Positions 3 through 29,915 of a stretch of DNA of 29,915 bases are shown piece by piece. The notes beneath the pieces are model-generated. The model did not search any database. It saw nothing but the letters and a program-made list of their open reading frames with translations, and was not told the DNA's origin. Numbering within the stretch: position 1 is the first letter of the stretch; every line of letters starts with the position of its first letter. Source of the stretch: an uncultured Chloroflexia bacterium (GTDB lineage: Bacteria > Chloroflexota > Dehalococcoidia > DSTF01 > JALHUB01); NCBI GenBank assembly GCA_963726245.1, contig CAVSBT010000013.1:1-29915 (forward strand), in the 5' to 3' direction. Made by a program: the position numbers and the translations under genes.

Positions 3-50
3 CGGTTCAAGACGCTCGACACAGACATGGCGAGCAGGATGAGAGGTTAG
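3..50 (+). CDS. nuoK: NADH-quinone oxidoreductase subunit K, 3' end (partial)
   Basis: Reads RFKTLDTDMASRMRG* directly upstream of nuoL and resembles NuoK C-termini ending in MRG. Confidence 0.8.
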   Translation, partial: RFKTLDTDMASRMRG

Positions 51-51
51 C

Positions 52-1938
52 TTGCTGAAGCTCCTCTGGCTGGTCCCGATGCTGCCTTTCGCCGGCTACT
101 TCTTGCTGGCGATGATCGGCGCGCGGCTCCCGCGAAAGGCGGCGGCGATCATCGGCGTCAGCTCGGTAGGGCTGTCGGCATTCTTCGTCATCCTGATAGC
201 GATTAGCTTCCTGGTCTCGCCACCCGAAGGCGACGCCTACCTCCAGACGGTCTGGACGTCGATCAAGGTGGGTGATTTCCAGCCGCAGATCGCCTTCTAC
301 CTCGACTCCATCTCGCTGATCATGATCCTGGTGGTGACCTTCGTCGGCTTCCTCATCCACCTGTATTCCGCCGAGTACATGGCCGACGACGAAGCGTACA
401 GCCGCTTCTTCGCTTACATGAACCTGTTCGTCGGCTCCATGCTCATGCTGGTCCTGGCCGACAACCTGCTGCTCCTCTACCTGGGCTGGGAGGGCGTGGG
501 ACTGTGCAGCTACCTGCTCATCGGCTTCTGGTACAGAGACCCGGCCAACGGGCGGGCGGCCCGCAAGGCCTTCATCGTCACCCGCATCGGCGACACGGCG
601 ATGACCGTGGGCTTTCCTCTCTTCACCAACCTGGGGACCCTGCAGATCCAGGACCTGATCACGCGGGCTCGCTGCAGTGGCCCGTCGGTCGGCCTGCCGT
701 GCTGGCGGCGTTGCTGCTCCTGGGCGGCGCCGTGGGCAAGTCGGCGCAGTCCCGCTGCAGACGTGGCTGCCCGACGCCATGGCCGGCCCGACGCCGGTGA
801 GCGCCCTCATCCACGCGGCGACGATGGTCACGGCCGGCGTGTACCTCATCGCGCGGACCCACGTCCTCTTCGCCCTGGCCCCGGGGTCGAGCTGACGGTG
901 GCTGTCATCGGTGCGGCGACCCTGCTTGTGGCGGGGCTCACCGCCCTGGCGCAGTCGGACATCAAGCGCGTGCTGGCCTACTCGACGATCAGCCAGATCG
1001 GGTACATGTTCCTGGCCCTGGGGGTGGGCGCCTGGTCGGCGGCGATCTTCCACTTCATGGTGCACGCCTTCTTCAAGGCGCTGCTCTTCCTGGGGGCCGG
1101 GGTGGTCATCATCAGCTCCACCACGAGCAGGACATGTTCAAGATGGGCGGGCTGCGCAAGCAACTGCCGCTGACCTTCTGGACGTTCCTGATCGGTGCGG
1201 CGTCGCTGGCGGCGCTGCCGCTGATAACGGCCGGGTTCTACAGCAAGGACATGATCCTCTGGGAGACGTGGTCCTCGAAGATCGGCAACCGGGCTGTGGG
1301 CGGCCGGCCTGGCCGGGGCGCTGATCACCTCGCTGTACACGTTCCGCATGGTCATTCTCACCTTCTTCGGCGAGGCGCGGCAGCAGATCAGCCACAAGCC
1401 GGGCCTGGCGATCAGCATCCCCCTGGTGATCCTGGCCTTCCTCTCGCTGGCCGGCGGTTTCGTCGAATTGCCGCGCCCGCTGGGGGACGTCCCGGCCTTC
1501 TCGGACTTCATGCACAGCGCCCTGCCGGAGCTATCGGTCAACGCGGCGCGCGGCGGCGTCGGGACGGAGGCCGCGTTCGAGATCATTGCCGCGATGGTGA
1601 CTCTGTTCGGTGTCTACCTGGCATTCATGCTGTTCCTGCGCGCCCCGCGGCAGGTTGAGCGGCTGGTGGAGACGCCGGTGGGCGAGAAGCTGCATCGCTT
1701 CTGGTTCACCGGCTGGGGCTTCGACTGGGTGTACGACAGGCTGTTTGTCTGGCCCTTCGCCTGGATCGCGCGCATCAACCGCAGCGACTTCGTCGACCTG
1801 ATCTACACAGGCGTCGCCTGGGTCAACCGGCTAACTTATGGAGGGCTGCGCCAGACGCAGACCGGGCTTGTGCGCTGGTACGCGATGGGGATCGCCGTGG
1901 GCGCAGTCGCAGTCATGGCGATCGTGGTGTTCCGATGA
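52..1938 (+). CDS. nuoL: NADH-quinone oxidoreductase subunit L (several frameshifts)
   Basis: Motifs [59 protein letters not shown] and [10 protein letters not shown], spread over ORFs 52-1173, 677-895, 1134-1658 and 1348-1938. Confidence 0.95.
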
Positions 1939-3504
1939 TGCTGGTGGCGTTCATCCTCATCCCCGCAGCCGGCGGCGTAGTTGCCTGGATAGCGGCGCGC
2001 TGGGGCTCCCAATGGCCCCGCTGGATCTCCCTTTCGCCCTCACGATCGACCTCATACTGGCGGTGGCGTTCTGGGCCCACCACTTCGGGCCGCTGGCCGC
2101 CTCGTTCAGCGGCCCCTGGCTGGCCGAGACGAACCACACATGGATCACACAGCTCGGGATCAGGTTCCACCTGGCGATAGACAGCCTGAGCCTCCTGCTG
2201 ATCGTGCTGACCGCCTTCCTGGGGATCATGAGCGTCCTCGCCTCCTGGCGGGAGATCGAGGAGCGGGTAGGCTTCTTCCACTTCAACCTGATGTGGACGC
2301 TGGCCGCGATCACGGGCGTCTTCCTGGCGCTGGACCTGTTCCTCTTCTACTTCTTCTGGGAGATGATGCTGGTCCCCATGTACCTCCTCATCATCCTCTG
2401 GGGCCATGAGAACCGCATCTATGCCGCCGTCAAGTTCTTCCTGTTCACGCAGGCCAGCGGCCTCCTGATGCTGGCGGCCATCCTGGGGTTGTACTTCGCC
2501 CACGGCCACAGCACCGGGACGTACACCTTCGACTATACGCAACTGCTGGGCACGGCGATGTCCGGCGAGGACGGCGATGTGGCTCATGCTCGGCTTCGTC
2601 GCCGCTTTCGCCGTCAAGCTGCCGGTCGTGCCGCTGCACACGTGGCTGCCCGACGCCCACACCGAGGCGCCGACCGCCGGCAGCGTCATCCTGGCCGGCC
2701 TCCTGCTGAAGACCGGGGCCTACGGGTTGCTGCGCTTCGTCCTGCCGCTCTTCCCGGGGGCCGCCCTGGACTTCGCGCCGTACGCGATGGGATTGGGGGT
2801 CGTCGGCATCATCTACGGCGCTGTGCTGGCATTTGCCCAGTACGACTTGAAGCGTCTGGTGGCATACACCAGCGTCAGCCACATGGGGTTCGTGCTGCTC
2901 GGCATCTTCGCCTTGAACGAGCTGGCGCTGCAGGGGGCGGTGATGCAGATGATCTGCCACGGCATCGCGACCGGGGCGCTCTTCATCCTCGTCGGCGAGC
3001 TCCAGGAGCGCACCCACACCCGCGACATACGCAAGATGGAGGGCCTGTGGGCGACGGTGCCGCGCATGGGGGCCGTCGCGCTCTTCTTCGCCCTCGCGTC
3101 GCTGGGCCTGCCGGGGATGGGCAACTTCGTCGGCGAGTTCCTGGTGCTGCTGGGGGCGTATCAGGCTCGCCTGGTGTTCGCGATACTCGCCTCGCTGGGC
3201 CTCATCGCCGCCACCATATACGCGCTGTGGATAGTGCAGAGCACCTTCCACGGGCCGAACACGGCCGGGTGGAAGCTGCCGGACCTCCGGCCGCGGGAGA
3301 TGGTGATCATGGGACGCGCTGATGGCCGTGATCATGTGGCTGGGCCTCTACCCGCAGTCGGTGATCAGCACGGCGAAGCAGTCGCTGGACAATCTGCCAC
3401 AGATCGCTTCGACCTCGCAGGCGGTGTCGTCCCCGCCGGCTGCGGGCGCTGTGGTGCCGGGTGGCGAGTCCCAGCCTAACCTGCTGTTCGGAGACGGCCG
3501 ATGA
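1935..3504 (+). CDS. nuoM: NADH-quinone oxidoreductase subunit M (frameshifted)
   Basis: Motifs LFYFFWEMMLVPMY, AVKLPVVPLHTWLPDAHTEAPTAGS and LGLPGMGNFVGEF. The start overlaps the nuoL stop (ATGA). Confidence 0.95.
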
Positions 3505-4934
3505 CGGGCACTGAAATCGTTACCCTGTTGCCGCTCATCGTCCTGGCGGCGGCGCCGGTCGTCATCATGCTGGTGGTCGCCTTCTACCGCGACCACCGGC
3601 TGACCGTCGCGCTGACCATGTTCGGACTCGTCCTGGCCTTCGCCATGCTTCCGGTGTCGTCAAAGACCAGCTCCAGCGAGGTGACGGCGCTTCTCATTCT
3701 CGATCGCTACGCGCTCTTCTACATGGGGCTGATCTTCGCAGCCGCCTTCGCCGTCGCCGGGCTGGCGTACAGGTACCTGGAAGGGCGCGAGGGCAGCGCC
3801 GACGAGTTCTACATCCTCCTCCTGCTGGCCACGCTCGGTTCGGCGGTGCTGGTGGCCAGCAGGCACTTCGCCTCGTTCTTCCTGGGGCTGGAGATCCTCA
3901 GCGTCTCGCTCTACGGCTTGATCGGCTACCCACTTAGAGAGCACAGCATTGAGGCGGCGATCAAGTACCTGATCCTGGCCGCGGCCTCGGCGGCGTTTCT
4001 GCTCTTTGGCATGGCCCTCATCTACGGCGAAGTGGGGACGATGGAGTTCGCCGGCATTGCCTCGTCCATATCCGGACTGAGCGACATACAGAAGACGGTG
4101 CTGATGACGGGCTTCGGCATGGTGGTCGTCGGGGTCGGGTTCAAGCTGGCGGTTGTGCCGTTCCACATGTGGACACCCGACGTGTATGAAGGCGCGCCGG
4201 CGCCGGTGACCGCGTTCGTGGCATCCGTATCCAAGGGAGCCATGTTCGCGCTCGTGCTGCGCTTCTACACGCAGATCGACTACCGCTCCTACGACTCGCT
4301 GTTCGCCGCGTTCTACGCCATCGCCGTCGCCTCGATGCTCGTCGGCAACCTGCTCGCGCTGCTGCAGAGCAATGTGAAGCGGATCCTGGCCTACTCCTCC
4401 ATCGCCCACCTTGGGTATCTGCTGGTCGCCTTCCTGGCCAGCGGCTCGCTGGTGGTGACGGCCGTGACCTTCTACCTGGTCGCCTACTTCGCGGCCACCC
4501 TGGGCTCATTCGGCATCATCACGGTGCTATCGGGCCCCGACCGCGAGGCGGACAGCCTGGACGACTACCGCGGCCTCTTCTGGCGCCGCCCCTGGCTGGC
4601 GACCGCGTTCACGGCGACGCTCCTCTCGCTCGCCGGCATACCTCTGACGGCGGGCTTCCTGGGGAAGATCTACCTGGTGACCGCGGCCGCGGGGTCCGCC
4701 CTGTGGGCGCTGGTCATCATTCTCGCCGTGAGCAGCGTCATAGGCCTGTTCTACTACCTGCGCGTCATCGGCACGATGTTCGCGCACCCGCCGGAGGAGG
4801 TTAGAGGACCGGCCGTCGAGCCATCCCTATCTCTGGCCGACAACCTGGTACTGGCAGTGGTGATGTCAGTGGTGGTCTGGCTGGGCGTCTACCCTGCCCC
4901 GCTAATCCACGTGATTGAGGCGATCAGCCGCTGA
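3501..4934 (+). CDS. nuoN: NADH-quinone oxidoreductase subunit N
   Basis: Intact 477-aa ORF with EAAIKY, FKLAVVPFHMWTPDVYEGAP and KRILAYSSIAHLGY. Confidence 0.97.
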   Translation: MTGTEIVTLLPLIVLAAAPVVIMLVVAFYRDHRLTVALTMFGLVLAFAMLPVSSKTSSSEVTALLILDRYALFYMGLIFAAAFAVAGLAYRYLEGREGSADEFYILLLLATLGSAVLVASRHFASFFLGLEILSVSLYGLIGYPLREHSIEAAIKYLILAAASAAFLLFGMALIYGEVGTMEFAGIASSISGLSDIQKTVLMTGFGMVVVGVGFKLAVVPFHMWTPDVYEGAPAPVTAFVASVSKGAMFALVLRFYTQIDYRSYDSLFAAFYAIAVASMLVGNLLALLQSNVKRILAYSSIAHLGYLLVAFLASGSLVVTAVTFYLVAYFAATLGSFGIITVLSGPDREADSLDDYRGLFWRRPWLATAFTATLLSLAGIPLTAGFLGKIYLVTAAAGSALWALVIILAVSSVIGLFYYLRVIGTMFAHPPEEVRGPAVEPSLSLADNLVLAVVMSVVVWLGVYPAPLIHVIEAISR

Positions 4935-12630: not shown

Positions 12631-13116
12631 ATGCCGGAGGAAAAGCTGCCGGAATGGTTCGAGAAGGACTTCTTCCTGCACGACAAGCAGCAGCGGAGCT
12701 GGGACGAACTGGAGGTCGGTGAGGAGTACGAGACGGTGCCCTTCACCGTCACCGCGGAGAGGATAGCGAAGTATGTCGAGGGTACCGAGGATTACAACCC
12801 GGTGTTCTGTGACGAGGAAGCCGCAAAGGATTCGCAGTTCGGAGGGATGATCGCTCCCCCCACCATCGTGGTCCCCATAGTCTTCGCGACCACCCCACCC
12901 GATATATGGATAAAGATGCCGGGGGCGATCAACCCGGGGCAGAAGCTGGAGTTCGGCGTCCCTGTGAGGCCGGGAGACACCGTCCGTTGCATGGCGAGGC
13001 TGACCGACAAGTACATCAAGAGGGGCAGGAAATACGCCATGAGCCGGATGCAGATACTGAACCAGAGGGACGAGGTGGTGTGCGTCTGGACCGGCGGGCT
13101 CATCCTGCCGCGCTGA
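12631..13116 (+). CDS. MaoC/hot-dog dehydratase, HadA-like partner subunit
   Basis: Motifs DYNPVFCDEEAAK, APPT and PVRPGD. ATG at 12631 chosen as the more likely start. Confidence 0.8.
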   Translation: MPEEKLPEWFEKDFFLHDKQQRSWDELEVGEEYETVPFTVTAERIAKYVEGTEDYNPVFCDEEAAKDSQFGGMIAPPTIVVPIVFATTPPDIWIKMPGAINPGQKLEFGVPVRPGDTVRCMARLTDKYIKRGRKYAMSRMQILNQRDEVVCVWTGGLILPR

Positions 13117-13138
13117 ATCCGGGGAAGGAGGTGGCGAT

Positions 13139-13582
13139 ATGACCGAGAAATTGCGTTTCGACGAGATAGAATTGGATTACGAGATCCCTCCGCAGAGCAA
13201 GGGGATCAACCAGGAGAAGATAACCAGGAACGCCGAGGCCTCGCTCGATTACAATCCCATCCACATAGACCCGGAGTATTGCAGGAAGATAAACCTTCTG
13301 GGTAAGGGCACGACCATTGCCCACGGCATGATGACTTTGTCTTTCATGGGGAAGATCGTCACGGATTGGGCCTATCCGGCCGGCGGGTATATGAAATCCT
13401 TGGAGGGCAAGTTCACGGCTCCGGTGAGACCGGGAGAAGAGATAACCGTTCACGCGGTGGTGACCGAGAAGCACTATATGGCCAAGAAGGAGGACAACTT
13501 CGTCGTCCTGGACGTATGGTGCGAAAAGCAGGACAAGACCAAGGTCTCCGTCGGGAGGGCCTCGGCCGTGATCCCCCACTGA
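13139..13582 (+). CDS. MaoC family dehydratase, catalytic (HadB-like) subunit
   Basis: Hydratase motif DYNPIHID, plus IAHGM and FTAPVRPG; AAGGAGG RBS. Confidence 0.85.
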   Translation: MTEKLRFDEIELDYEIPPQSKGINQEKITRNAEASLDYNPIHIDPEYCRKINLLGKGTTIAHGMMTLSFMGKIVTDWAYPAGGYMKSLEGKFTAPVRPGEEITVHAVVTEKHYMAKKEDNFVVLDVWCEKQDKTKVSVGRASAVIPH

Positions 13583-13608
13583 GCATGGAGGGTCGGACGC
13601 GAAGCCTG

Positions 13609-13807
13609 CCGCGAGTGGTACGAGTCGGTACTGATGCCCCGCCTTGGGCCGACGGCGATCGTCGGGCTGCTCTTCACCATCGTGGTCATGTTCGCACTCA
13701 AAGAGGAGTACATCCTTGATATGCCGCTCGACGTGCTGCGAATAGCGGGTCCGCTGCTCCTCTATTTCCTGATCATGTTCAGTGTCTCGTTTTTCATGTC
13801 CTGGCGG
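13609..13807 (+). pseudogene. acr3: Internal fragment of an Acr3 arsenite efflux transporter
   Basis: REWYESVLMPRLGPTAIVGLLFTIVVMFALK...DVLRIAGPLLLYFLIMF resembles the mid-region of Acr3; both termini are missing. Confidence 0.75.
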
Positions 13808-14116
13808 GGTGTTGAGCCCAATGCGCACACGTACGGCCCGCTCAGGCTCCCGCCGGTTGCGTCCTGGTATCGCCCTCTGGATATCGACCGCGCAGGCGAC
13901 AGCCCTTCGCGCGGAGGTGAAGGCGACCATTAGGCCATCGCCAGTGTGCTTGACCTCTTGCCCGCGATGCCGGGTGATCTGCTGGCGGACCAGCTCGTCA
14001 CAGGCGCGCAGCACCTCGCGGGCGGCGTCGTCGCCGAGCCGTGTCGTGAGGTCAGTGGACCCTTCGCAATCCGTGAAGAGGACTGTGACCGTGCCTTCGG
14101 AGAGCTCTTGTGTCAC
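13808..14116 (-). pseudogene. Truncated class III nucleotide cyclase gene (gene D)
   Basis: Motifs TVLFTDCEGST, KHTGDG and VRIGLNT, then an abrupt end. The GTG start overlaps the upstream TGA. Confidence 0.85.
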
Positions 14117-17100
14117 GACCCGATCTCCCCCAGCATCTCCTCCGCCATCTCCACGTGCTTGGGCATGCCGATCCGGCGGTACATGGCGATGGCTCTCCGT
14201 GAGGAGCTCGCGCGCCTTCTCGCGGTCGCCGGGGGCGTCGCGGTCGATGAGCATGCGGGCGTACCAGCGCCGCACCTCCGGCTGCTCGATGACGACCGGC
14301 AACTCGTGGGCCTGGCGCAGGGCCGTCTGGTAGTGCTCCTCCGCCTTCTCCCACTGGCCGCCGGCCGCGGCCGCCATGCCGGCCAGAGACTGAAATAGCC
14401 CCGCGGCCAGTACACGAGGGCACCGGAATTGACAGCCTCTAGCACCAGGGGGTAGAGCTTCGCGGCCTCCTCCCGTTCCCCGAGGACGGCCAGCCCTTCG
14501 ACCGCCGCGAAGAGCATCGCCCAGGCGCCCCAGATGTTGGCGCGGCCGGGGCGCGGAAGGCCCTCCCGCCGCTCCTCGAGCGCGGCCAGGGCTGCGTCCT
14601 TGTCGCCCATGTACGCCTGGCACATGAACAGCCCGGCCCAGTCGTAGCCGGCCAGCATGCCGGGGGGCTCGAGCCTGGCGGCCTCCCGGAAGCTCTCCAG
14701 CGCCTGGTCCCAGCGGCCCCTCCAGAAGTGCGCCAGGCCAAGGTAGGTGTAGGAGTTGGAGATCCAGGGCATGCCGGCGCTGCGGCAGAGCTCCAGGTCT
14801 GCCCTGGCGAACTCCTCGAACCTGTCGATGTCGCCCGTCAGGCTGAGATTCGTTGACGCCGCTACCGCGCCTGACCGCCATGAGGGCGCCCAGGTGGCCC
14901 AGGCGGATGGCCAGGCCCTCCGCCTCCTCGGCCATCCTGGCGGCTTCATCGAAGCGGCCGAGGAAATGAGGGCGTACTGGGTGTACCACAGCGTGTCGGC
15001 CAGAGCCCAGAGGTCGCCGGCGGAGCGCAAGAGCTCGGCCGCTCGCAGGCCGGCGTCGACCGCTTCCCGCGGCTGCAGGTACCACACGTGAACCTGGGCC
15101 TTCATTGAGAGGACCAATCCCAGGAGGTGCCGGTCGCCCAGCTCCTCGGCCATGGCGAGCCCCTCAGTGAGCATTGCGTCGCCGCCGGCGTAGTCTCCGC
15201 CGAGGCTGAGCTCCCATCCGGCCGCGGCGGCGAGGCGGCAGCGGTCGACGCTCACCTGTTGGCCCAGCGCGCGAAGGCCGCGGCGGGCGACCTCCACCGC
15301 TTCGTCCCAGCGGGCTGCCCAGCCCAACTGGGCGGACAATTCGTAGCAGACGCGGGCCACCGCCTCGGCGTCGTCCAGCTCCTCGTAGGCGGCCAGCGCC
15401 TCCCGCCAGTCGGCCAGCGCCTCCTCCCAGCGGCCCAGGCTGCGCAGGGCCAGCCCCCGCTTGTACAGGAGGTCGGCCCGCGTGCGCTGGTCGTCGGCCG
15501 GATAGTAGGGAGAGGGCGTCATCGTAGTGGCGCAGGGCGTCCTCGAAGGCCGCTGCCTCCATGGCCTGATCGCCGGCCAGCGCCAGGTAGCGCACCGTCT
15601 TCTCGGGGTCGGCGGCGGCCCCGGCCTGGTTGAGGTGGTAGGCCAGGTCGGCGGCGTGCTCTTCGATGGACCGGGAGTAGGCCCGCTCGATGGCTTCCGC
15701 CACCCGCAGGTGCAGCCGCTGACGGCGGGGCAGGGAGAGGCCGCTGACCAGCGTCTGGCGGATCAGCTCATGCGCGAAGGTGAAGCGGGCCTCGCGGAGG
15801 CCGTCGGCGGGGCCGTCTGAGGCGGTGATGAGGTGGGCCCGCTCGGCCTCGTCGACGGCGTCCAGCAGGGTCGACATCCAGGCTGCCCTGAGCCTGCCGA
15901 AGGGTCGCCCAGCGCCTCCAGCAGCTCGAAGCTGAAGCCGCGGCCGATGACGGCGGCGGCGGTGAGTACCCGCCGGCAGTCCTCGCTGACTCGCTTGAGT
16001 CGGCGTCCGATGACCAGGCGGACCCCCTCGGCACGTCCAGCTCGGCGACCTTGAGGTCGGACCGCCAGCGGCCTTCAGCATCAAACAACTTTCCCTCCTC
16101 TGCCAGGTGCTGGAACACCTCCTCCACAAAGAAGGGGTTGCCCTCCGTCTCGCGTAGACGCGCCTGACCAGCGAGGCCGGCGGCTCCTGGCCGCTCAAGG
16201 CCCGCAGCATGGCCGCCACGCCTTCCTCGGGCAGGCGCCTGAGGGACCAGTATGGGTCAGACGGTGGCGGTGGAGCTCTTCCAGGGCCCTGGCCAGCGGA
16301 CGGTCCACGTCCAGCTCGACGTCTCGGTAGGTGCCCAGGATGAGGACGAGGCATCTCGCGGATCTGCTGAGCGATGTGCTGGAGAAGCAGCAGGGTGGAG
16401 CTCGTCAGCCCAGTGCAGGTCGTCCAGGACCAGGAGCAGCGGCTGGGCTCGGCCGGCCCGCGCCAGGAACTCGCGCATGCCGTTGAACAGGTAGCGGCGC
16501 TCCTGTTCCGGCGGCAGCTCCAGGCGGCTGCGGGATGTCTGGGAAGAGGCGGCGCAGCTCCGGCAGCAGCTTGGCCACCTCGGGCGCCGAATCGCCCAGG
16601 GCGTCGCGAAGCGCCTCGCGGCGGGACCAGGCGGGCGGCACCCTCGAGCATCTCCACAAAGGGGATGTAGGGAGGCGCGCCCTCCATCTCGTAGCAGTGC
16701 CCGATTAGGGCCGTCATGCCTCTCTGGCGGGCCTCCAGCAGCAGCTCCTGGGCGAGGCGCGTCTTGCCCACGCCGGGCTCGCCGCCGATCATCACCAGCG
16801 CGCCCCGACCACGAGCCGCTTGGCCAAGAGAGCGCCGCAGCTCGGCCTGCTCGGCCTCGCGCCCCACGAAGGGCGTGCGCTCCGCGAGGGTCGGCACGGC
16901 GGCGGTAGGGGCCTCCTCCTGCCAGACGACCTCGTACAGGCGCCAGCGTTCGGGGAAGCCCTTGAGGCGGAAGCGGCCGCGGTCGACCAGTTCCACGTTC
17001 TTGGGACGCCCCAGGACCGCCCGCACAGCCTCGGATATCAGTATCTGGCCGCCCTTGGCCTTGGCTGCGATGCGGGCAGCGGCGTTCACCGCCTCCCCAA

Positions 17101-17442
17101 ACAGGTCCGCCTCCTCCTGGATGGCCTCTCCCGTGTTCAGGCCGATGCGCACCTGTACCTGGTGGTCGAGGTTGCTGCCGGTTGTGCTCCTCGAGCGCCC
17201 GCTGGATGGACGACGGCGCAGGCCACGGCACGCCGCGCCGACCCGAACGCCACCATGAAGCCGTCACCTATCGACTTCACCTCGCAGCCGCTGTGCTGCC
17301 CCACTTGCTGCCGCACCAGCTCGCGCTGAGCGCGGAGGATCGCGTGGGCGACATCGTCGCCCCGGCGTGTCGTCAGGTCAGTGGAGCCCTCGACATCCGT
17401 GAATAGGACAGTAATGGTGCCTTCAGGAAGCTCCTGGACCAT
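14113..17442 (-). CDS. Cyclase - STAND/AAA_16 NTPase - TPR-like protein (gene C, frameshifted)
   Basis: Cyclase motifs FTDVEGST, KSIGDG and DLFGEAVNAAAR; Walker A GEPGVGKT; Walker B LVLDDLHW; GNPF; FAHELIR; helical repeat tail. Confidence 0.88.
15883..15904. repeat. Second copy of the small coding-inserted repeat
   Basis: The minus strand reads CCCTTCGGCAGGCTCAGGGCAG and encodes an extra PSAGSGQ in the NTPase region. Confidence 0.65.
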
Positions 17443-17486
17443 GGGAACGAATCCTCACCGCGTGAGCGAACCAGATTCTCCGTTAT

Positions 17487-19948: not shown

Positions 19949-22900
19949 CTACCAGACCACCTCGTACACCCGCTGGCGGCCGATGCCCTTGAGCTGCTTG
20001 CGGCCTGCGTCGCGGAACTCCACGCCCGCCAGCGAACCGCCGAGGTTGCGCACCAGCTCTGAGACCAGGATCTGCCCTCCCTGGGCCCTGTCGGCACACG
20101 GGCGGCCAGGGTGACGGCCGTGCCGAAGTAGTCCCCCGCCTCCTTTATGGACTCCCCCGCGTTGAGGCCGATGCGGACGCGGATCGGCTCATCGGCAGTC
20201 TCGTTGTGCTCCGCGAAGGCCTTCTGGATGCCCACGGCGCAGGAGAGGGCCCTGGAGGCAGAGGAGAACGCCACCATGAAGCCGTCACCGGTGTGCTTAA
20301 CCTCATGGCCGCCGTGGCGGGCCACCTGCTCCCTCAGGATGCGGTTGTGCTCCCGCAGAAGCCCATGGTATGCCTCGTCGCCCAGACGCTGGGCCAGCGC
20401 GGTGGAGCCCTCGATGTCGGTGAAGAAGATGGTGACGGTGCCATCGGGGGCAGCGTGGGGGCGCAGGTCGGGCTGCTCGGCCTCGACCGCCGCGGCCACG
20501 ACGCCGATGGAGCTGTAGGGGCTTGTCCTGTCAACCCCCTGGAGCTGGAGCTTCAGCGCTAGCGCCCGTTCGACATCCTTCTTCATGCCTAGCTCCTCGA
20601 AGGTGGCTAGCGCCTGGTTCACGAGCCCTTGCGCCTTCTCACGGTCGCCCGGCTGATCGCGTCTCTGAAGCATGGCGGCGTACCAAGATTGCGTGCGGGC
20701 CAGCCAGGGCCGGGCGCCGATCTTCTCGTTGAAGGCGAGGGCATCCCGGAAGTGCCGCTCGGCATCGTCCCAGTTGCCCATCGTGTCGGCGAGCTGGCCG
20801 AGAAGGCGAGACGCCGACCCGTCGCACAGCAGGGCGAAGCTGACGACGATGCCGCGGGCAGCGTACGGCTGCAGCATCTCGTAGAGGAGGGCCGCCCGGC
20901 GGCGGTCCCCTAGCCGGCTCGCAATATCGGCTGTGAGGCTGAAGGTCGCTATATCGCTGGGGATATCGCTGAAGTCGTTCGCCGCCAGCCGCTCGAACCA
21001 CTCCAGGGCCTGTTCGGGCCGGTCCGTCTCCAGATACATGTAGGCCAGAGCTGCCTGCGTGATAGACACCACCTCGGGGAACTGCTCGAGGCCTTGCGGA
21101 AGAATCGGCTCGAGCTCGCCGAGCCGGCCCTGTCCACGGCGAATGTCGAAGAGGTGGGCGGTCACGGCCTCTACGTAGTGTGGATGCTGCGTCCGCTGGA
21201 CGATGGGTATGTACTGGACAAACAGCTGCTCGGCTTCCCCATACCGCCCCTCCATCGCTGCCCGCATGCAGGCCCACAGCAGACGGAAGCCGCTCAACAA
21301 CGGCTCACGCATCTGCTCAGCTAGGTCGGAAGCGATCACTGTCTCGCGCTCAACCTCCTGCATGTCGCCGAGTTCAGCCAGGTCCGACAGGCGGAAAAAG
21401 TGGGCCCACAGGATTTGCAGACGGTCCCCGGCCTCTTCCGCAAGCTGGAGCCACTCATTCGCCACGGCGAGCCGCTCCTCCGTCCACTCCGGGCCCAGCA
21501 GGGCCCAGTGCAGGGCGCTCAGGGCTGAAGCCCGCGCCCCGAAGTCTCCGACCCGTTCCGCCATCTCCTTCGCCTGCCGCGCCATCGCCAGGCGCTGTTC
21601 GCGCGGCGCCAAGCGATACAGGGATACGCTGAGTGTCGCCAGCAGTGTCGCCCTTAGGGGGCTGTCTTCCCGACCGACCGCCTCCAGCGCCCGCTCCAAA
21701 GCGGGCACATCTGCCCCCGTGCCCCAGAGGGGGCCCCGAAAGGCTGCCAACGCATAGGCGCTGGCGGCGTCGCCCTGGAGCTGGGGGTCACCGAGTGCTT
21801 CGGCGACCTGCACGGCACACTCCAGCGCCGCCGTGGCCTTCTCCGGCACGTCGGCGCGGGCGTACGCCTGGCCGAGTGCCATCAGGAGGTCGAAGCGCCG
21901 GCGCTTCTCCGGCCTGTCCTTGAGATCGAGGGCCTGGAGCGCAATCTCGTAGTGGCCGGCAGCCTCTTCGTAGGCAAGGAGGGCGACAGCACGGTCCCCA
22001 GCCCGCCTGGCGTAGTCGATGGCCTTGTCCACCTCGCCGCCGGGGGCAGCCTGATAGAAGTGGTGCGCCAGCTCCGCCAGGTGGGGCTCCAGGTTGTCGG
22101 CGTGTACCTCCTCCAAGGCGCGCCCTATTTGCCGATGGAGGATCACCCGCCTGGGGGTGCTCAGCTCGCCGTAGAGGGTCTGGCGGATGAGGGCATGGGT
22201 GAAGTCGTAGTTGCCGGCATGGTCACCCCGACGCTCCTGGATGAGCTGGGCGGCCAGCGCTTCGTCCAGCAAGTCCAACAGCGCTGGCTCGGACTCGCCG
22301 GTGATCGCCTTCAGCTCCTCCCACGAGAAGCCACCCGTCATCGTCGAGGCCAACGTCAGCACCCGGTTGCAGCCCTCGCTCAGCCGCGACAGGCGCCTGC
22401 CCACGACTTCACGCACCCCCTCCGGGATGCCGAATTCGGATACGCTCGTGACCTTGCTCGTCCAGCGGCCGCCCTCCCGGTAGAGCTTCCCTTCCTCCAT
22501 TAGGTGACTGAGCACCTCGCGCATGAAGAAGGGGTTACCCTCGGTCTCCCGGTAGAGCGCCGTGGCCAGCGCCCGCCGTGCCGCTGCGCTCTCCTCCGAG
22601 GGCTCGATGGCAGTGAGGAGGGCGAGCACGTCCTCTTCCGAAAGCCCGCGCAGGAGGAGACGCCGGTAGAGCTGCTCCCGGCGCAGCGTCGCGATGACCT
22701 CTGACAGCGGATGTGTGCGGTCAAGCTCAACGTCGCGGTAGGCGCCGAGAGTGAGCACGCGCTGGCCAGCGACGCTCCGCGCCAGGTAGCGCAGGAGCAG
22801 GAGCGAGGGCTTGTCGGCCCAGTGCAGGTCGTCCAGCAGGAGGACGAGGGGGTTGGCAGCCGCTGCGTTGCGGACGAAGGCGCTGACGCTCTCGAAGAGG

Positions 22901-24365
22901 CGGAGGCGCTCGGCGTCAGGCTCTAGGGGCGGCGCCTCCGGGATGTCGGGGAAGCGGCGGCGTACCTCAGAGATGAGCTTGGCTACCTCGGGGGCGCCAT
23001 CCCCCAGCTCCTGGCGAAGTAGTGGATCGGGACGGTCCTGAACGTACTGGCGGAAGGCCTCCACAAAGGGCCGGTAGGGCAGCGCCACCTCTCCCTCATA
23101 GGCGCGGCCGGTGAGCACCTGGGCACCACGCAGGCTGGCGTAGACGCCGAACTCCTCGGCCAGGCGCGTCTTGCCGATGCCCGGCTCCCCGACCATCATC
23201 ACCAGCGACCCGCGGCCGGAGAGGGCGTTCTCCAGAGCGGCCTTGAGCTGGTCCATCTCCTCCCGCCGGCCGACGAAGCGGCCCCAGTCGACCCCCTGGA
23301 GGTCGGCAGCGGGCGCGGCTGGCGGCGGTATCGCCAATTGTTCGGTGGAGCTTTCGCCGGATGCGGCGCAGCTCTTGTGCGACGGCGGCGGCGCTCTCGG
23401 GGCGCTCCTCCGGCGCTTTGGCCAGCAGCCGCATGATCAGCGCCTCCAGGGCCCGCGGCACCTCCGGATTGTGCCAGGAGGGCGCCACCGGCGCCGTGTT
23501 GATGTGCTGGGAGATGACGGCCACGGCGTCGTCGCCCAGGAAGGGCGGGCGGCCCGCCACCATCTCGTAGAGCATCGCCCCCAGCGAGTAGAGGTCGCTG
23601 CGGGCGTCGGCCTGGCGGCCGAGGGCCTGCTCCGGCGGCATGTAGGCGACGGTGCCCACCATCATGCCCGCCTGGGTGACGCGGGAGCGGTCGAGGACCA
23701 CGGCAAGGCCGAAGTCGCCGAGCTTGGCGCTGCCGTCCTCGCTGAGCCAGACGTTGCCCGGCTTCAGGTCGCGGTGGATGATGCCCCGGCCATGCGCATA
23801 CTCCAGCGCCTGACACACCTCGCTGGGCGATACGCAGCGCCTGGTCCATCGGCAGGCGGTGGTTCTCAGCCTTCTGGAGCAGTTCCTCCAGCTCCCCGCC
23901 GCCCATGTACTCCTAGACGATGTATGGCTGCCCGCCCTCCTCGCCGATGTCGTAGACCGTGACGATGTGCGGGTGGTCGCCGAGGCGGCCCATCGCCTGG
24001 GCCTCGCGCCGGATGCGGGCCAGGCCGTCGGCGTCCAGGCCCTCGGTCTTGATAAGGGCGAAGGCCACGTCGCGGTCGAGCTTCGTGTCGTGGGCCAGGT
24101 AGACCCGCTTCTAGCCGCCCTCGCCAAGGAAGCGCCGCACCTGGTAGCGGCCTGAGGCGAAGGAGGTGGGGATAGCGGGAGTGGGAGCGGGTGTCGGCGC
24201 CTGTGGCGGTGCTTGGCTCAGGGAAGCGCCGCAGGCGTTGCAGAAGGTGCTACCGGGAGGATTCGTCTGGTTGCAGCTGGGGCAACGTGCCTCTAACCGG
24301 AAGCTGCACGAATTGCAGAAGCGCGCTTTCGGAGGGTTCTCATGGCCGCACGACGGACATTTCAT
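19949..24365 (-). CDS. Double zinc ribbon - Ser/Thr kinase - STAND NTPase - TPR-like - class III cyclase (gene B; two in-frame TAGs and frameshifts)
   Basis: Four CxxC pairs; HRDLKPGN, DFG and YMPPEQ; GEPGIGKT, LLLDDLHW and GNPF; FTDIEGST and KHTGDG. The probable true end is LKGIGRQRVYEVVW* at 19949. Confidence 0.88.
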
Positions 24366-24367
24366 GC

Positions 24368-27300
24368 TTAGACCTCGGCCGCTCGCCGGATGCCCTGCAC
24401 GTGCTCCGAGCCAAGGAAGGTCTCTCTGAGCGACTCGTCGGTGAGCCCTGGCGGCCACCCCTTCGATGACGGCGAGGGCATCGCGATAGGCTTGGCGGGC
24501 ATCGTCGCGCCGTGCCCTGGGCCTTTCGCAGGTCTCCCAGGGCGGCGTGGGTCTTCCAGAGCTGGGGCGGGTTGCCGATCTGCTGGGCAATCTCCAGGGC
24601 GGTGGCAAGCTCCTTCTCCGCCTCCGCCAGCTTGCCCTGAGCCAGGAAGACCTGCCCCCGCAGGCGGCGGCCCTTCACGACGTTCTTCTTACTGTGGCTC
24701 GATTCCGCCAGGGCCAGGCACTCGTCGGCGTATGCAAGGGCCTTGTCGTAATCGCCCCTGGCCAGCCACAGCTCGCCGTAGCTGTGGAACAGGTGCTGGG
24801 AGTAGCGCCACAGCATCCAGCGGTCCTGGGGACGTGGGTTTCGCACCACTTGCTCGACCCTCTGGAACTGCTCCTCAGCCTCATCGGGGCGGCCCAGCGC
24901 CACCAGGTTGTCCCCGAGGTTCAGGCGGGCGTTGCTCTCGACCTCTGGGTCGGGGAAGTCCGCCTCCACTGCTGCCTCGACCCCCCGCGTGTTCCACTCC
25001 ATCGCCTGCTGGTGGTCCTGGAGCTCGCCGTAGACCCAGCCTATGGTGTTCACGACGCGAGCCCGAAGATAGACCTCGCCCACGCGGCCGCAGGTCGCGA
25101 GTAGATGCGCGAGGAGAGCAAGGGCCTGCTGGTAGTCTCCCCTGCCCCCACGGGCAAGGGCGTCTGCCCACTGATTCCACATGAGCTGGGTGATCTGATG
25201 GCTTTCTTCGGCCGCGCCGCGCCAGCGCTCGAGAACCTGCAGTGCCTCGTCATAGTGGCCTGCCCAATTGGACACCAAGCTGCTGATATTGCCCAGACGG
25301 ACTGAAGGGGTTATCAACCTTTGGCGCCAGCTCCCCTGCCGTCTGCATAGAGCGTTTGGGCCTCAGCGTGGCGGTTAAGGTCGCGCAAAGCACAGCGAGC
25401 CAGCACGCTCGCGACAAAGCGAACGTCGTCAAAACCTTCATCGCCAATGGCCAGGGCGGCCCTCAACGTTTGCTCGGCCGTCTCGAAGTCGTGGTTCGTA
25501 CAACTCCTGCATACCGCGAAGGGCGAGAGCCATCCCCTCCAGGCGCCGGTCGCCCAAGCTGCGGGCGGCCATCAGCATCCGGTCGAAGTCGGCAACACCG
25601 CCCGAAAAACCCCCGATGGTGTAGTTCACGAAGCCCCGGCTCAAGGCTACGGAGGCGGATACCGCAAGGGCCGGCTTGCCCAGCCTCTCGCACACGTCCA
25701 GGGCTCGCGCGTAGTAGTCCAGCGCGTCTTGGTTGGCGTAGGCGGCGGTGGCCTTGTTGCCGGCCTTCACCAGGTAATCCAGGGCCTTCTGCCACTGCTG
25801 TCCCTGGTAGTAGTGGTGGGCCAGCGCCTCGTAGTGCTCGGGCAGCCGGTCGGCATACAGCTCCTCGATGGCGGCCGCCACGACGCGGTGCAGGGCTCTA
25901 CGCCGCTCCACCAGCAGGGTGGAGTAGGCCACATCATGGGTCAGGGCGTGCTTGAACATGTAGGACAGCTCGGGGAAGTAGGCCTTCTCGTAGATCAGCT
26001 CCAGCGATTTCAGCTCCGCCAGCAGCTCGTCCATCTTCACCTCGATGTGCGAGATGCGGTTCAGCAGCCGCACCGTGAACTCGCGGCCGATGACGGAGGC
26101 GAGCTGGATGGCTTCCTTGGCCTGGCGCTCCAGCCGGTCGATGCGGCTGAGGATCACCTCCTGGATGGTGTCGGGCACCCGGATCTGCTCCAGGGCGCGT
26201 TCCACCGAGTAGCTACCGTTGGTCTTGCGGAGGACGCCGGACTCCACCAGGGACTTGGTGACCTCCTCGATGTAGAAGGGGTTGCCCTCCGCCTTGCCGA
26301 TGATGAGCTGCTGAAGCTGCTGGGGCAGCGTGGCCACCTGGAGCACACCCTCGGCCATGACCACGCTCTCCTCCGGCGGCAGGTGACCCAGCGCCAGGCG
26401 GCTGTAGTAGGTGCGCTCGCCCAGGGAGTGGGCGTAGCCGGGCCGGTAGGTGAGAACCAGCAGCACCGGCGCCGAGGCGACGACGTCCACCAGCGCCGCC
26501 AGCGCCTCCTCTGACATCTCGTCCACCCAGTGCAGGTCCTCCACGACCACCACCAGCGGCCGCCGGCGGCTCTCCTGGAGGAGGAGCGCCCGCAGGCTGT
26601 CGAAGACGCCGGCCCGCCGCTCCAGGGGGTCCATGACCGTCACAGCCGGGTCGCCGGGGTCTACGTTCAGCAGGTACTTGAGATAGGGGACAGTCGCCTG
26701 GGCCGCTTCGTCCCAGGGGGCGGTGCCCTCGTCAACTTTGCGGATAATGGCGGCGTCGTTGTCCGCCTCCTGCACGCCGAAGTTGCCCTTCAGGATGTCG
26801 ATGATGGGCAGGTAGGGGATGTTCTTGCCATAGGAGATGCAGTGGCCTTCCAGCCAGGTGGCCGCCTCGTCTAGGATAGAGCGGCGGAACTCCAGGAGGA
26901 GGCGGGACTTGCCGATACCGGCTTCGCCCGAGATGAACACCACCTGTCCCTGGCCCCGCTTGGCCTGCTCCAGGTAGCCCCCGAGCACGGTCAGCTCCTG
27001 GTCGCGGCCGATGAAGGGGGTGAGGCCGCGCTCAGCTGCGGCCTCGAGGCGGGTGCGCGCCGCCTTCTCCCGCTAGGGCCCTGTAGGCCACGACCGGCTC
27101 CGCTTTGCCCTTCACCGCTAGCGAGCCCAGGGGCTCGCACTCGAAGTAGTCCCGTGCCGCCCGGTAAGTGTTCTCGGTGAGGTAGACGGCACCGGGCTCG
27201 GCCATCTCCTCCATTCGGGCCGCCAGGTTCACCGTGTCGCCCAGGGCCGTGTAGTCCATGTCCAGGTTGTCGGAGATCTTGCCGACGACCACGGGGCCGG

Positions 27301-27868
27301 TGTTGAGGCCGACGCGAAAGCGGCACTCGACGGCGTGACGCTTCTTGACCTCGGCAGCATAATCGTCGAGGGACTTCTGCATCTCAAGGGCGGCGGCTAC
27401 AGCGCGGCGGGCGGCATCCTCGTGGGCAATGGGGGCGCCAAAAAGGGCCATGACGCCGTCGCCCGTGAACTGCGTAATCGTGCCCTCGTAGCGATGGACA
27501 GCCTCCATCATCCGGCTGAAGCAGCCCTGCATCAGGTCATAGACCTGTTCCTCATCCAGGCGCTCGGAGATGGGAGTAAAGCCCACGGCGTCCGCGAAAA
27601 GGACGGTTACTGTGCGGCGTTCGCCTTCCAGGGCGGCGCGGTTGCGGAGGATTTTCTCGGCCAGGTGGCGCGGCGTATAGGCGAGGGGGTCTCCCGGCGC
27701 GGGTGGCCTAGAGGGTTCAGGTAGCCTGTGGCCGCAGGACTCACAGAAGCGAGCTGAAGGCCTAAGCTGCGCCCCGCAGTTCGGGCAGGCCCGCGCCAAG
27801 GCTCCGCCGCACTCGCCGCAGAACTTTAGGCCCTCTGGATTCTCGTGGCCACAGGAAGGGCAGCGCAT
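24368..27868 (-). CDS. Double zinc ribbon - class III cyclase - STAND NTPase - TPR protein (gene A, frameshifted)
   Basis: MRCPSCGHENP; VLFADAVG, QFTGDG and GDTVNLAAR; GEAGIGKS, VVEDLHW, GNPFY and FKHALT; TPR-like tail. Confidence 0.9.
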
Positions 27869-28802: not shown

Positions 28803-29915
28803 ATGCGCTGCCCTTCCTGTGGCCACGACAACCCGGACGATGCGACCTTCTGCGGCGAGTGTGGGTCTTCGCTTCAGAGCGAGCTGACCTGCAGCACCTG
28901 CGGTCGGCCGAACCCACCGACCACCAGGTTCTGCCACGGCTGTGGGCAGAGCCTTTCTCAACCCGCGGCCCCTGCCAGACCGTCTACATCAGCCCCTTCC
29001 CCCTCCCTCCCCACCTTCTTCGCCTCAGGCCGCTACCAAGTGCGGCGCTTCCTGGGCGAGGGCGGCAAGAAGCGGGTCTTCCTGGCCCACGACACCAGGC
29101 TCGACCGGGATGTGGCCTTCTCCCTGATCAAGACCGAGGGCCTGGACGCATCCGGCCTGGCCCGTGTCCGCCGCGAAGCGCAGGCGATGGGTCGTCTAGG
29201 CGACCACCCTAACATCGTCACCGTCTTCGACATCGGGGAGGACGCCGGGCAGCCCTGCATCGTCTGCCAGTACATGGAGGGTGGCTCGGTGGAGGACCTC
29301 GTCGACCAGGCGCCTGACCACAGGCTCCCCATCGACCAGACCCTCCAGATGGCCTCCGAGGTCTGCCAGGCCCTGCGCCATGCGCACGACCGGGGCATCA
29401 TCCACCGCGACGTCAAGCCGGGCAACATCTGGCTCACGGCAGACGGCCATGCCAAACTGGGCGACTTCGGCCTGGCGGTGGCCCTCGACCTCTCCCGCCT
29501 CACCCAGGCGGGCATGATGGTCGGTACCGTCGCCTACATGCCCCCTGAGCAGGCCCTGGGCGGCAAAGTAGACACGAGAAGCGACCTCTACGGCCTGGGG
29601 GCCACCCTCTACGGATGGCCTGCGGCAGGCCCCCTTCTCCGGCCACGACCCGGTGGCCGTCGTCTCCCAGCACCTCAACACGCCGCCCGTGGCACCCTCC
29701 TTCCATAACCCCTCACTTCCTCCGGCCCTCAACGACCTCATCCTCAAGTTGCTGGCCAAGAACCCCGATGACAGGCCTCCCTCGGCTGACGAGGTCCTGG
29801 CAGTGCTAGGAAGTCTGTCGGAGCAAGTCGAGCGCGGTGAGGTAGTGGCCCCCGCCGAGCCTGCCGCCGTCACTCCCCTCAGCCGGGTGGCCTGGGGCGC
29901 CTTCGTGGGCAGGGA
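28803..29915 (+). CDS. Double zinc ribbon - Ser/Thr kinase - (STAND NTPase) paralog, gene E, runs off the window
   Basis: Four CxxC pairs; HRDVKPGN, DFG and YMPPEQ; frameshift near 29615; ends VAWGAFVGR, matching the NTPase entry motif of gene B (VDWGRFVGR). Confidence 0.9.

Follow-up and report, generated by a model that had tools for sequence, protein, structure and literature searches.

Contig CAVSBT010000013.1 (C13) of assembly GCA_963726245.1, from an uncultured Chloroflexota bacterium of the class Dehalococcoidia, encodes two protein kinases that have Ser or Ala at the position of the β3 lysine (VAxK) and a lysine at the third glycine position of the glycine-rich loop (Gly loop, GxGxxG). 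The window that we analyzed is the whole of this contig (29,915 nucleotides), and the two genes are referred to as gene E, on the plus strand, and gene B, on the minus strand. An initial annotation of this DNA had read both as active bacterial kinases with the relocated lysine known from eukaryotic WNK kinases, joined to STAND NTPases. The features of gene E are given below, the last four as read from its translation.

28803-29915, plus strand: 5′ part of gene E, from the ATG at 28803 to the contig end that cuts it; double zinc ribbon and kinase (AAA_16, TPR, and cyclase expected to follow)
29055-29072, plus strand: Gly loop GEGGKK; Lys90 (29070-29072), at the third-Gly position, is the proposed catalytic lysine
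29112-29123, plus strand: β3 motif VAFS; Ser107 (29121-29123) replaces the VAxK lysine
29130-29132, plus strand: Lys110 of LIK, three residues past the β3 position; a rival candidate for the catalytic lysine, judged unlikely
29175-29177, plus strand: αC Glu125 (RREAQ)
29403-29426, plus strand: catalytic loop HRDVKPGN
29463-29471, plus strand: DFG
29541-29549, plus strand: PPE (APE motif)

Pfam recognizes a DZR zinc ribbon (1.2e-12) in gene E and then a Pkinase domain (PF00069, 3.2e-37), which scores 128.8 bits against a cut-off of 31.7. The translation of 29055-29135 reads GEGGKKRVFLAHDTRLDRDVAFSLIKT, with the leading Leu at 29052-29054, and the motifs HRDVKPGN, DFG, RREAQ, and PPE all lie in one frame. 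The gatekeeper residue is Cys (29262-29264). Two 1-nt deletions fall within 29613-29633, a stretch at which the natural relative P0036, an intact protein 98% identical to gene E, reads LYEMACGRPPFSG. The contig breaks off where the ATPase domain of gene E starts (FVGR). Its fusion to AAA_16 is known through P0036, which carries AAA_16, TPR, and Guanylate_cyc domains, the window ending first.

Gene B, whose domains were assigned with Pfam, is interrupted as assembled by two in-frame TAG codons and three frame changes. Some of these sites differ in related metagenome contigs from public sequencing runs, here labeled X1, X2, and X3.

19949-24365, minus strand: gene B; double zinc ribbon, kinase, AAA_16 STAND ATPase, TPR, class III cyclase
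24108-24125, minus strand: Gly loop GEGG*K; Lys at the third-Gly position (24110-24108)
24113-24111, minus strand: first TAG, at the fifth Gly-loop position, which is K or R in most relatives
24048-24068, minus strand: VAFALIK; Ala (24059-24057) at the β3 Lys position, LIK Lys at 24050-24048
23913-23915, minus strand: second in-frame TAG (IV*EYM), at the gatekeeper position; related metagenome contigs read CAG
about 23823, minus strand: frame change 1; one base fewer in related contigs of runs X1, X2, and X3
23708-23776, minus strand: HRDLKPGN (23776-23753) and DFG (23716-23708), in the second frame, past the frameshift
about 23357, minus strand: frame change 2; one base fewer in related contigs of runs X1 and X3
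22759-23280, minus strand: AAA_16 (STAND NTPase; PF13191, 1.7e-30) with Walker A motif GEPGIGKT
near 20095, minus strand: frame change 3, inside the cyclase domain
19952-20448, minus strand: class III adenylyl/guanylyl cyclase (PF00211, 4.3e-15)

From the ATG at 24365, gene B reads FLGEGG*KRVYLAHDTKLDRDVAFALIK, the asterisk standing for the first TAG, and it ends with a stop codon at 19951-19949. Both motif strings in the initial annotation are correct, that of gene B on the minus strand from this ATG (a plus-strand reading of 24049-24129 is meaningless). Their coordinates need a small correction: the start for gene E was set 3 nt late for its string and the end for gene B was 1 nt off. The second TAG and the three frame changes of gene B, as well as the deletions and the truncation of gene E, are not mentioned in that annotation. 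The exchange itself had also been described properly, with the β3 lysine replaced by Ser in gene E and by Ala in gene B, and Lys in place of the third Gly in both. That the other motifs are intact holds in so far as RREAQ, HRDxKPGN, DFG, and PPE are present; in gene B, HRD and DFG lie in another frame. The fusion to a STAND NTPase is borne out by AAA_16 in gene B and in the intact relative of gene E. Besides AAA_16, gene B gives a TPR_12 match. Its Walker A motif is intact, as are FTDIEGST and GDG of the cyclase, where the two metal-binding Asp are located. Reading TAG as a sense codon (for example for pyrrolysine; a paralogue has Lys at the site) was considered and rejected because gene B also contains three frameshifts, rpoC of the same assembly contains an in-frame TGA, and related contigs have CAG at the second TAG.

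The Exchanged Lysine among Related Kinase Domains

The exchange was counted in two sets of homologues. The first set comprises the 120 best longer homologues, which share 61-98% identity over a 270-residue N-terminal query, and to these we added the 150 best representatives from a 50%-identity library. With gene E as the phmmer reference, 319 domains could be mapped, belonging to 263 proteins. A Gly-loop Lys without a β3 Lys was found in 222 of these domains, a β3 Lys without a Gly-loop Lys in 90, and both together in none (0/319). The remaining seven domains have neither lysine: three are ±1 misalignments of ordinary kinases, and the other four are degraded, without the HRD Asp and in most cases without the αC Glu or other catalytic-loop residues.

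The 222 domains of the first kind, which range down to about 50% identity, retain the rest of the catalytic machinery. The Gly-loop Lys, the αC Glu, the HRD Asp, and the DFG Asp are each kept in 222/222, the catalytic-loop Asn in 221/222, the catalytic-loop Lys in 220/222, and the APE Glu in 215/222, with six of the rest outside the alignment. The β3 site is Ala in 167, Ser in 47, Gly, Cys, and Val in two each, and Tyr and Leu in one each, so that a small residue (A/S/G/C) stands there in 218. The fifth Gly-loop residue is Lys in 98, Arg in 93, and another residue in 31; the canonical neighbors have Met at position five (66/90) and Gly at position six (66/90). A regular expression spanning the Gly loop to β3 matched 117 of the 120 closest homologues, with the Gly-loop Lys in 117/117. 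Judged from these alignments, the Gly-loop Lys motif is not a chance occurrence but a conserved family trait under purifying selection.

Two further variations were noted. The 3024-residue relative P0124 has a tandem pair of kinase domains with the relocated lysine, LGEGAYKRVY...VALALLK and LGEGAFKRVY...VALALVK, in which the fifth Gly-loop residue is aromatic. The gatekeeper is variable in the clade, with Cys, Gln, and Ser seen; in typical bacterial kinases it is Met, as stated in part of the bacterial serine/threonine kinase (bSTK) atlas preprint (10.1101/2025.01.12.632604).

The register of the exchange was examined by comparison with solved bacterial kinases. A HMMER alignment of gene E with StkP is gap-free from the Gly loop through β3, save for one inserted residue in the hairpin turn, and GGKKRVFLAHD...VAFSLIK of gene E lies on GGMADVYLAKD...VAVKVLR of StkP. 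Ser107 falls on the catalytic Lys of VAVK and Lys90 on the third-Gly position, and the Arg of VLR is matched by the LIK Lys. An AlphaFold2 model was made for the family member P0133 (396 residues, 62% identical to gene E) from a 46-row alignment, A1. Its mean predicted local distance difference test score is 84.9 overall, and the blocks that cover the Gly loop and β1-β3 average 92-97. The strands span residues 90-98 (β1), 102-109 (β2), and 114-121 (β3), and the Gly-loop Lys (Lys102) opens β2. The initial annotation had considered that a model might put the LIK lysine at the canonical β3 site; as Lys122 of P0133, this residue lies just past the end of β3. The best match of the model in the PDB is PknB (1o6y; template modeling score 0.94, root-mean-square deviation 1.5 Å, 38% identity), and the next fold matches are other PknB, PknA, Stk1, PknF, and PknE chains. 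Neither the P0133 model nor the StkP alignment gives any sign of a register shift. A homodimer prediction for two copies of the P0133 segment 84-360, with ATP and Mg included, gave a score of 0.36, with the mark at 0.42.

Sequence searches of the PDB returned StkP, PknB, PknA, and PknE first, with gene E and with the family profile alike. Gene E gave 1054 matches at E ≤ 1e-10 and the profile 1560 at E ≤ 1e-20; the profile matches StkP/PknB-type kinases with E values from 5.5e-81 (StkP) to 1e-65 and eukaryotic kinases from about 1e-40. WNK entries are absent from the best 60 of the 1054 matches to gene E and from the best 60 of the 1560 matches to the profile, and no solved structure of a relocated-lysine clade member is among the PDB matches. 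In a FastTree phylogeny of 320 domains, the lysine trait changes once. Even when the alignment is stripped of the stretch that runs from the Gly loop to the LIK Lys, all 223 carriers group in a single clade (support 82). Since the nearest solved structures are PknB and StkP and not WNK, the exchange is convergent with that of WNK and, at least in this sample, arose once within PknB-like bacterial kinases. The convergence proposed initially is in line with the nearest solved relatives (StkP, PknB, PknA, and PknE) and with the origin of the trait inside a bacterial clade.

Among species-representative genomes, a scan picked out 454 stretches that code for relatives. The best 80 of these all come from metagenome-assembled genomes (MAGs), mostly of Dehalococcoidia and other Chloroflexota, including SAR202, together with several Thermodesulfobacteriota and "Deltaproteobacteria", one Acidobacteriota, and one Binatia. 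The motif expression matched 76 of these 80 loci, with the Gly-loop Lys in 76/76. As a lower bound, a strict DNA pattern for GEGG[KR]K[KR]V[YF] matched 6 of 401 evenly drawn genomes of the phylum at 17 sites (reversed control 0). It had no match in one other genome of the family of the window, nor in one of its order. The relocated-lysine clade is thus patchy and not phylum-wide, and it is locally expanded. Its presence outside Chloroflexota suggests transfer between phyla. One contig of a "Deltaproteobacteria" MAG holds three family members (L036, L074, and L063) within about 36 kb (record positions 258978-294695), and other MAGs contain four or five copies each.

Neighboring Genes and Quality of the Assembly

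Two further regions of the minus strand encode proteins or fragments with domains also found in gene B.

24340-27868, minus strand: paralogue without a kinase (double zinc ribbon, cyclase, AAA_16, TPR), adjoining gene B
13100-17454, minus strand: further cyclase, AAA_16, and cyclase coding fragments in several frames

Genes B and E and these STAND-type neighbors resemble each other in overall build but differ in the N-terminal effector, which is either a kinase or a cyclase. Positions 43-4934 (plus strand) contain three Proton_antipo_M genes (chains L/M/N of NADH:quinone oxidoreductase or Mrp-type), with a 227-codon open reading frame at 1255-1935, between the first two, that has no Pfam match. 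The contig also holds NADH dehydrogenase subunits and metabolic genes.

The assembly to which the window belongs comprises 2.68 Mb in 46 contigs with about 66% G+C and is rated 82.8% complete and 6.3% contaminated. Pkinase (PF00069) matches occur in genes B and E only, both of the relocated-lysine type; the same search found no canonical Hanks kinase in this 82.8%-complete genome. Guanylate_cyc gives 15 matches in the 2.68 Mb.

The sequence accuracy of this assembly can be gauged from two housekeeping genes on contig C37 (108750-116692), where rpoB is matched in three frames within about 400 bp and rpoC is split into nine matches or pieces and contains a single in-frame TGA. Indel errors seem to be frequent in this assembly, and broken genes in it do not equal pseudogenes without read support. 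The stops and frameshifts of genes B and E are therefore most likely assembly errors and not signs of decay: rpoB and rpoC are broken as well, related contigs do without the extra base at 23823 and at 23357 and have CAG at 23915-23913 (A>G at 23915 on the plus strand, in runs X1 and X3), and gene E has an intact relative at 98% identity. The related contigs are Logan contigs of public runs that hold at most 0.26 of the words, in pieces mostly 88-95% alike; at this similarity their source is related organisms, not the strain itself, so that they document reading frames of relatives without proving the error in this assembly. For the same reason of assembly errors, the copies of genes B and E in the window are poor material.

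Proposed Working and Alternative Explanations

As a whole, these observations are best explained by an active PknB-type kinase with a WNK-like Gly-loop lysine that is part of a STAND/cyclase protein, and we give this explanation a probability of roughly 0.7. Its observed basis is the sequence pattern with its exclusivity and conservation, the single origin inside bacterial kinases, and the domain architecture. What we infer beyond this is that the kinase is active, what the Gly-loop Lys does, and how the protein would signal.

Genes B and E are members of a large clade within the PknB-type (Hanks) Ser/Thr kinases that occurs mostly in uncultured Dehalococcoidia and other Chloroflexota. In this clade, the lysine that anchors the ATP phosphates would have moved from β3, now Ala or Ser, to the third-Gly position at the start of β2. 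On the precedent of WNK, this lysine (Lys102 of P0133) should hold the phosphates of ATP and pair with the retained αC Glu, with the HRD Asp, the Asn, and the DFG Asp left to do their usual chemistry. The kinase is most likely catalytically active, given that all other catalytic residues are conserved. The Arg of HRD is kept, as in RD kinases, and at least 90% of the sequences in alignment A1 share an activation-loop Thr (RLT). These two features fit regulation by activation-loop phosphorylation, as found in PknB, and the conserved Thr would be the site of autophosphorylation.

The domain composition of the family suggests how such a kinase may be employed. Among the 120 best homologues, Pkinase is present in all and AAA_16 in all but the truncated P0114; most also contain DZR and TPR, and those of 1450-1500 residues contain Guanylate_cyc. 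The kinase could thus act as the N-terminal output module of a STAND protein made up of a double zinc ribbon, the kinase, an AAA_16 NTPase, a TPR sensor, and usually a class III cyclase. A signal perceived at the TPR/NTPase part would be converted to phosphorylation and to a cyclic nucleotide. Such STAND sensors would share an NTPase/TPR core that drives a kinase or cyclase effector at the N terminus and, in many cases, a further cyclase at the C terminus. A further idea is that the relocation is not neutral: with the lysine on the mobile Gly loop, catalysis would hinge on how the loop is folded, and this would provide a switch worked by the STAND/TPR module or by a small anion or osmolyte, in an independent bacterial parallel to WNK control; we regard this idea as doubtful.

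Absence of the β3 lysine also invites the opposite view, that these domains are pseudokinases. They would then bind ATP, perhaps through the basic Gly loop, without phosphoryl transfer and would function as nucleotide-binding switches, that is, as conformational or scaffolding modules of the STAND protein. A missing VAxK lysine is the usual sequence criterion for pseudokinases, as stated in parts of two recent papers (10.1101/2025.01.12.632604; PMC12599244), and the window's genome offered neither a PP2C_2 nor an FHA partner. This view sits poorly with the complete retention of the HRD Asp, the DFG Asp, and the αC Glu, and of the Asn in all but one domain, since the bacterial pseudokinase families described in those parts, and the four degraded domains in our sample, lack two or more of these residues. 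Moreover, WNK is active with the same arrangement (PMC1821047, in part). We consider a pseudokinase unlikely. Alternatively, a register shift or a longer β2-β3 hairpin could make the LIK lysine the real catalytic lysine of an ordinary kinase with unusual spacing. The distances from the Gly loop to this lysine and from this lysine to the αC Glu would then still be within the range of kinases such as EGFR and Src. The residue is Lys in 204, Arg in 15, and another residue in three of the 222 domains, and this frequency of basic residues (219/222) far exceeds that at the same place in the canonical neighbors (24/90), although the latter figure also documents that a basic residue three places past the catalytic Lys is found in ordinary bacterial kinases. 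Because the site tolerates Arg and, in two further loci that read ALIN, Asn, while the Gly-loop Lys never varies, the LIK lysine appears to be a poor candidate. Its alignment with the Arg of StkP VLR and its location past β3, in a model that fits PknB at 1.5 Å, also speak against this explanation, which we rate as quite improbable.

The positive charge might also be supplied by the fifth Gly-loop residue, at the site of the first TAG in gene B, instead of the sixth. This residue is basic in 191/222 domains, where canonical kinases mostly have Met; it is S, N, T, M, Q, W, or another residue in the other 31, which keep every other catalytic residue, and the chances of this proposal are slim. That the exchange reflects sequencing errors or decaying pseudogenes without meaning at the family level could be suspected from an error-rich assembly with stops or frameshifts in both genes. 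For the motif this suspicion is refuted: the same residues recur in 222 related domains from independent assemblies and in 76/80 MAG loci, as the initial annotation had anticipated from two paralogues, and we attach practically no weight to an artefact.

Several observations nevertheless weigh against an active kinase with a Gly-loop lysine, or reduce the force of the evidence for it. The census was made of best hits to gene E and is biased toward the relocated-lysine family. Likewise, one of the six patterns used in the genome scan is the motif itself, and the best 80 of 454 stretches were examined. The initial annotation had proposed that homologues be checked for covariation of the two sites, and their exclusivity is indeed perfect (222, 90, and 0 domains); with a single change of the trait on the tree, it counts as one evolutionary event followed by long retention and not as many correlated changes. 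The unusual conservation of the Lys/Arg three places past β3 is a further point on this side, as is the interruption of both local copies: if the interruptions are real, genes B and E are pseudogenes. PP2C_2 and FHA domains were not found in the genome of the window, an absence that is weak in an 82.8%-complete and error-rich assembly, and a SpoIIE search gave one weak match. A wider Ser/Thr phospho-signaling network is thus not evident, and for this reason the kinase may mainly act on itself or on few targets.

Comparison with Known Systems

WNK has been treated as the one functional protein kinase family without the β3 lysine (PMC1821047, in part). We found no description of a bacterial WNK-like or Gly-loop-lysine kinase in the literature, although the supplementary family tables of the bSTK atlas might list one; the words "bacteri" and "prokaryot" do not occur in a 2026 review of WNK (PMC13686953). 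The relocated-lysine clade is therefore apparently a large, undescribed bacterial variant of a known arrangement, and probably a working design of independent origin. If true, a second independent and species-rich clade would mean that the exchange of Lys-72 for Lys-55 (PKA numbering) is a repeatable evolutionary route. It would also argue for caution in labeling a bacterial kinase a pseudokinase when the VAIK lysine is the only criterion, and it would provide simple bacterial proteins for studying how the relocation affects regulation. The architecture of kinase, STAND NTPase, and cyclase would join phosphorylation and cyclic-nucleotide output in one sensor.

A missing VAIK lysine is shared with the bacterial pseudokinase families ActPs1-3, GLW, CP1, DYD, and DLHK (O'Boyle, Kannan et al. 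2025). According to the portions of the two reports considered here (10.1101/2025.01.12.632604, PMC12599244), those families have in addition lost the HRD Asp and/or the DFG Asp, or else the αC Glu, all of which the clade keeps, and a Gly-loop Lys is not described for any of the seven. For DLHK, basic residues of β2 are proposed to bind ATP (PMC12599244, in part). The CAK-chloro subfamily of eukaryotic protein kinase-like (ePK-like) kinases resembles the clade more closely in one respect, its positive charge having moved from position 72 to position 55. As described in part of PMC1821047, CAK-chloro is nonetheless small-molecule-kinase-like and not a Hanks kinase, with Arg55, Met72, and Phe in place of the αC Glu.

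With regard to architecture, gene B contains AAA_16 with Walker A followed by TPR, as in STAND NTPases, and a Guanylate_cyc domain with two metal-binding Asp, as in class III cyclases. In the TIGR03903 TOMM kinase/cyclase fusion, too, a single polypeptide joins a kinase to an NTPase-like region and a cyclase. With this model, whose cut-off is 705.75 bits, we obtained 280.7 bits for the intact relative P0002 and 91.7 for the N-terminal part of gene E, so that these proteins are not of that family. Mycobacterial PknK-type kinase-STAND proteins are a similar kinase-NTPase fusion, and PknK has the canonical lysine.

PknB, StkP, and PknA are the closest Hanks kinases to the clade, being its best matches in sequence and in fold, and they share with it the RD type and a Thr-containing activation loop. 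A Pkinase score above the cut-off, HRDxKxxN, DFG, the αC Glu, and APE are all present in the clade; the VAxK lysine of Hanks kinases is not. Unlike PknB and StkP, clade members have lost the β3 Lys, have (K/R)-K for Met-Gly in the Gly loop, and are cytoplasmic multidomain proteins, not PASTA receptors.

Eukaryotic WNK differs from the clade in several ways. Common descent is not indicated and the clade does not belong to the WNK family, its nearest solved relatives being StkP and PknB, and the domain context of zinc ribbon, STAND ATPase, TPR, and cyclase is bacterial. WNK kinases have a chloride-binding site around a DLG motif. The relocated-lysine clade has DFG at this place, and because it does, nothing in its sequences supports WNK-like chloride or osmotic sensing. 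The arrangement of the lysine is nonetheless the same. In WNK, the residue corresponding to Lys72 of PKA has shifted to the Gly loop, where a Lys at PKA position 55 is required for catalysis (Kannan 2007, PMC1821047, in part); another source, also in part, describes a Cys at β3 and a Lys that migrated to β2 (PMC12599244). These are the positions that the initial annotation had named, and they agree with position 55 and K72 as given in PMC1821047. Like WNK1, with Lys233 in the Gly loop/β2 and Cys250 at β3, the clade combines a lysine at the third-Gly position with a small residue at β3, and like WNK it keeps the αC Glu, HRD, and the rest of the catalytic machinery.

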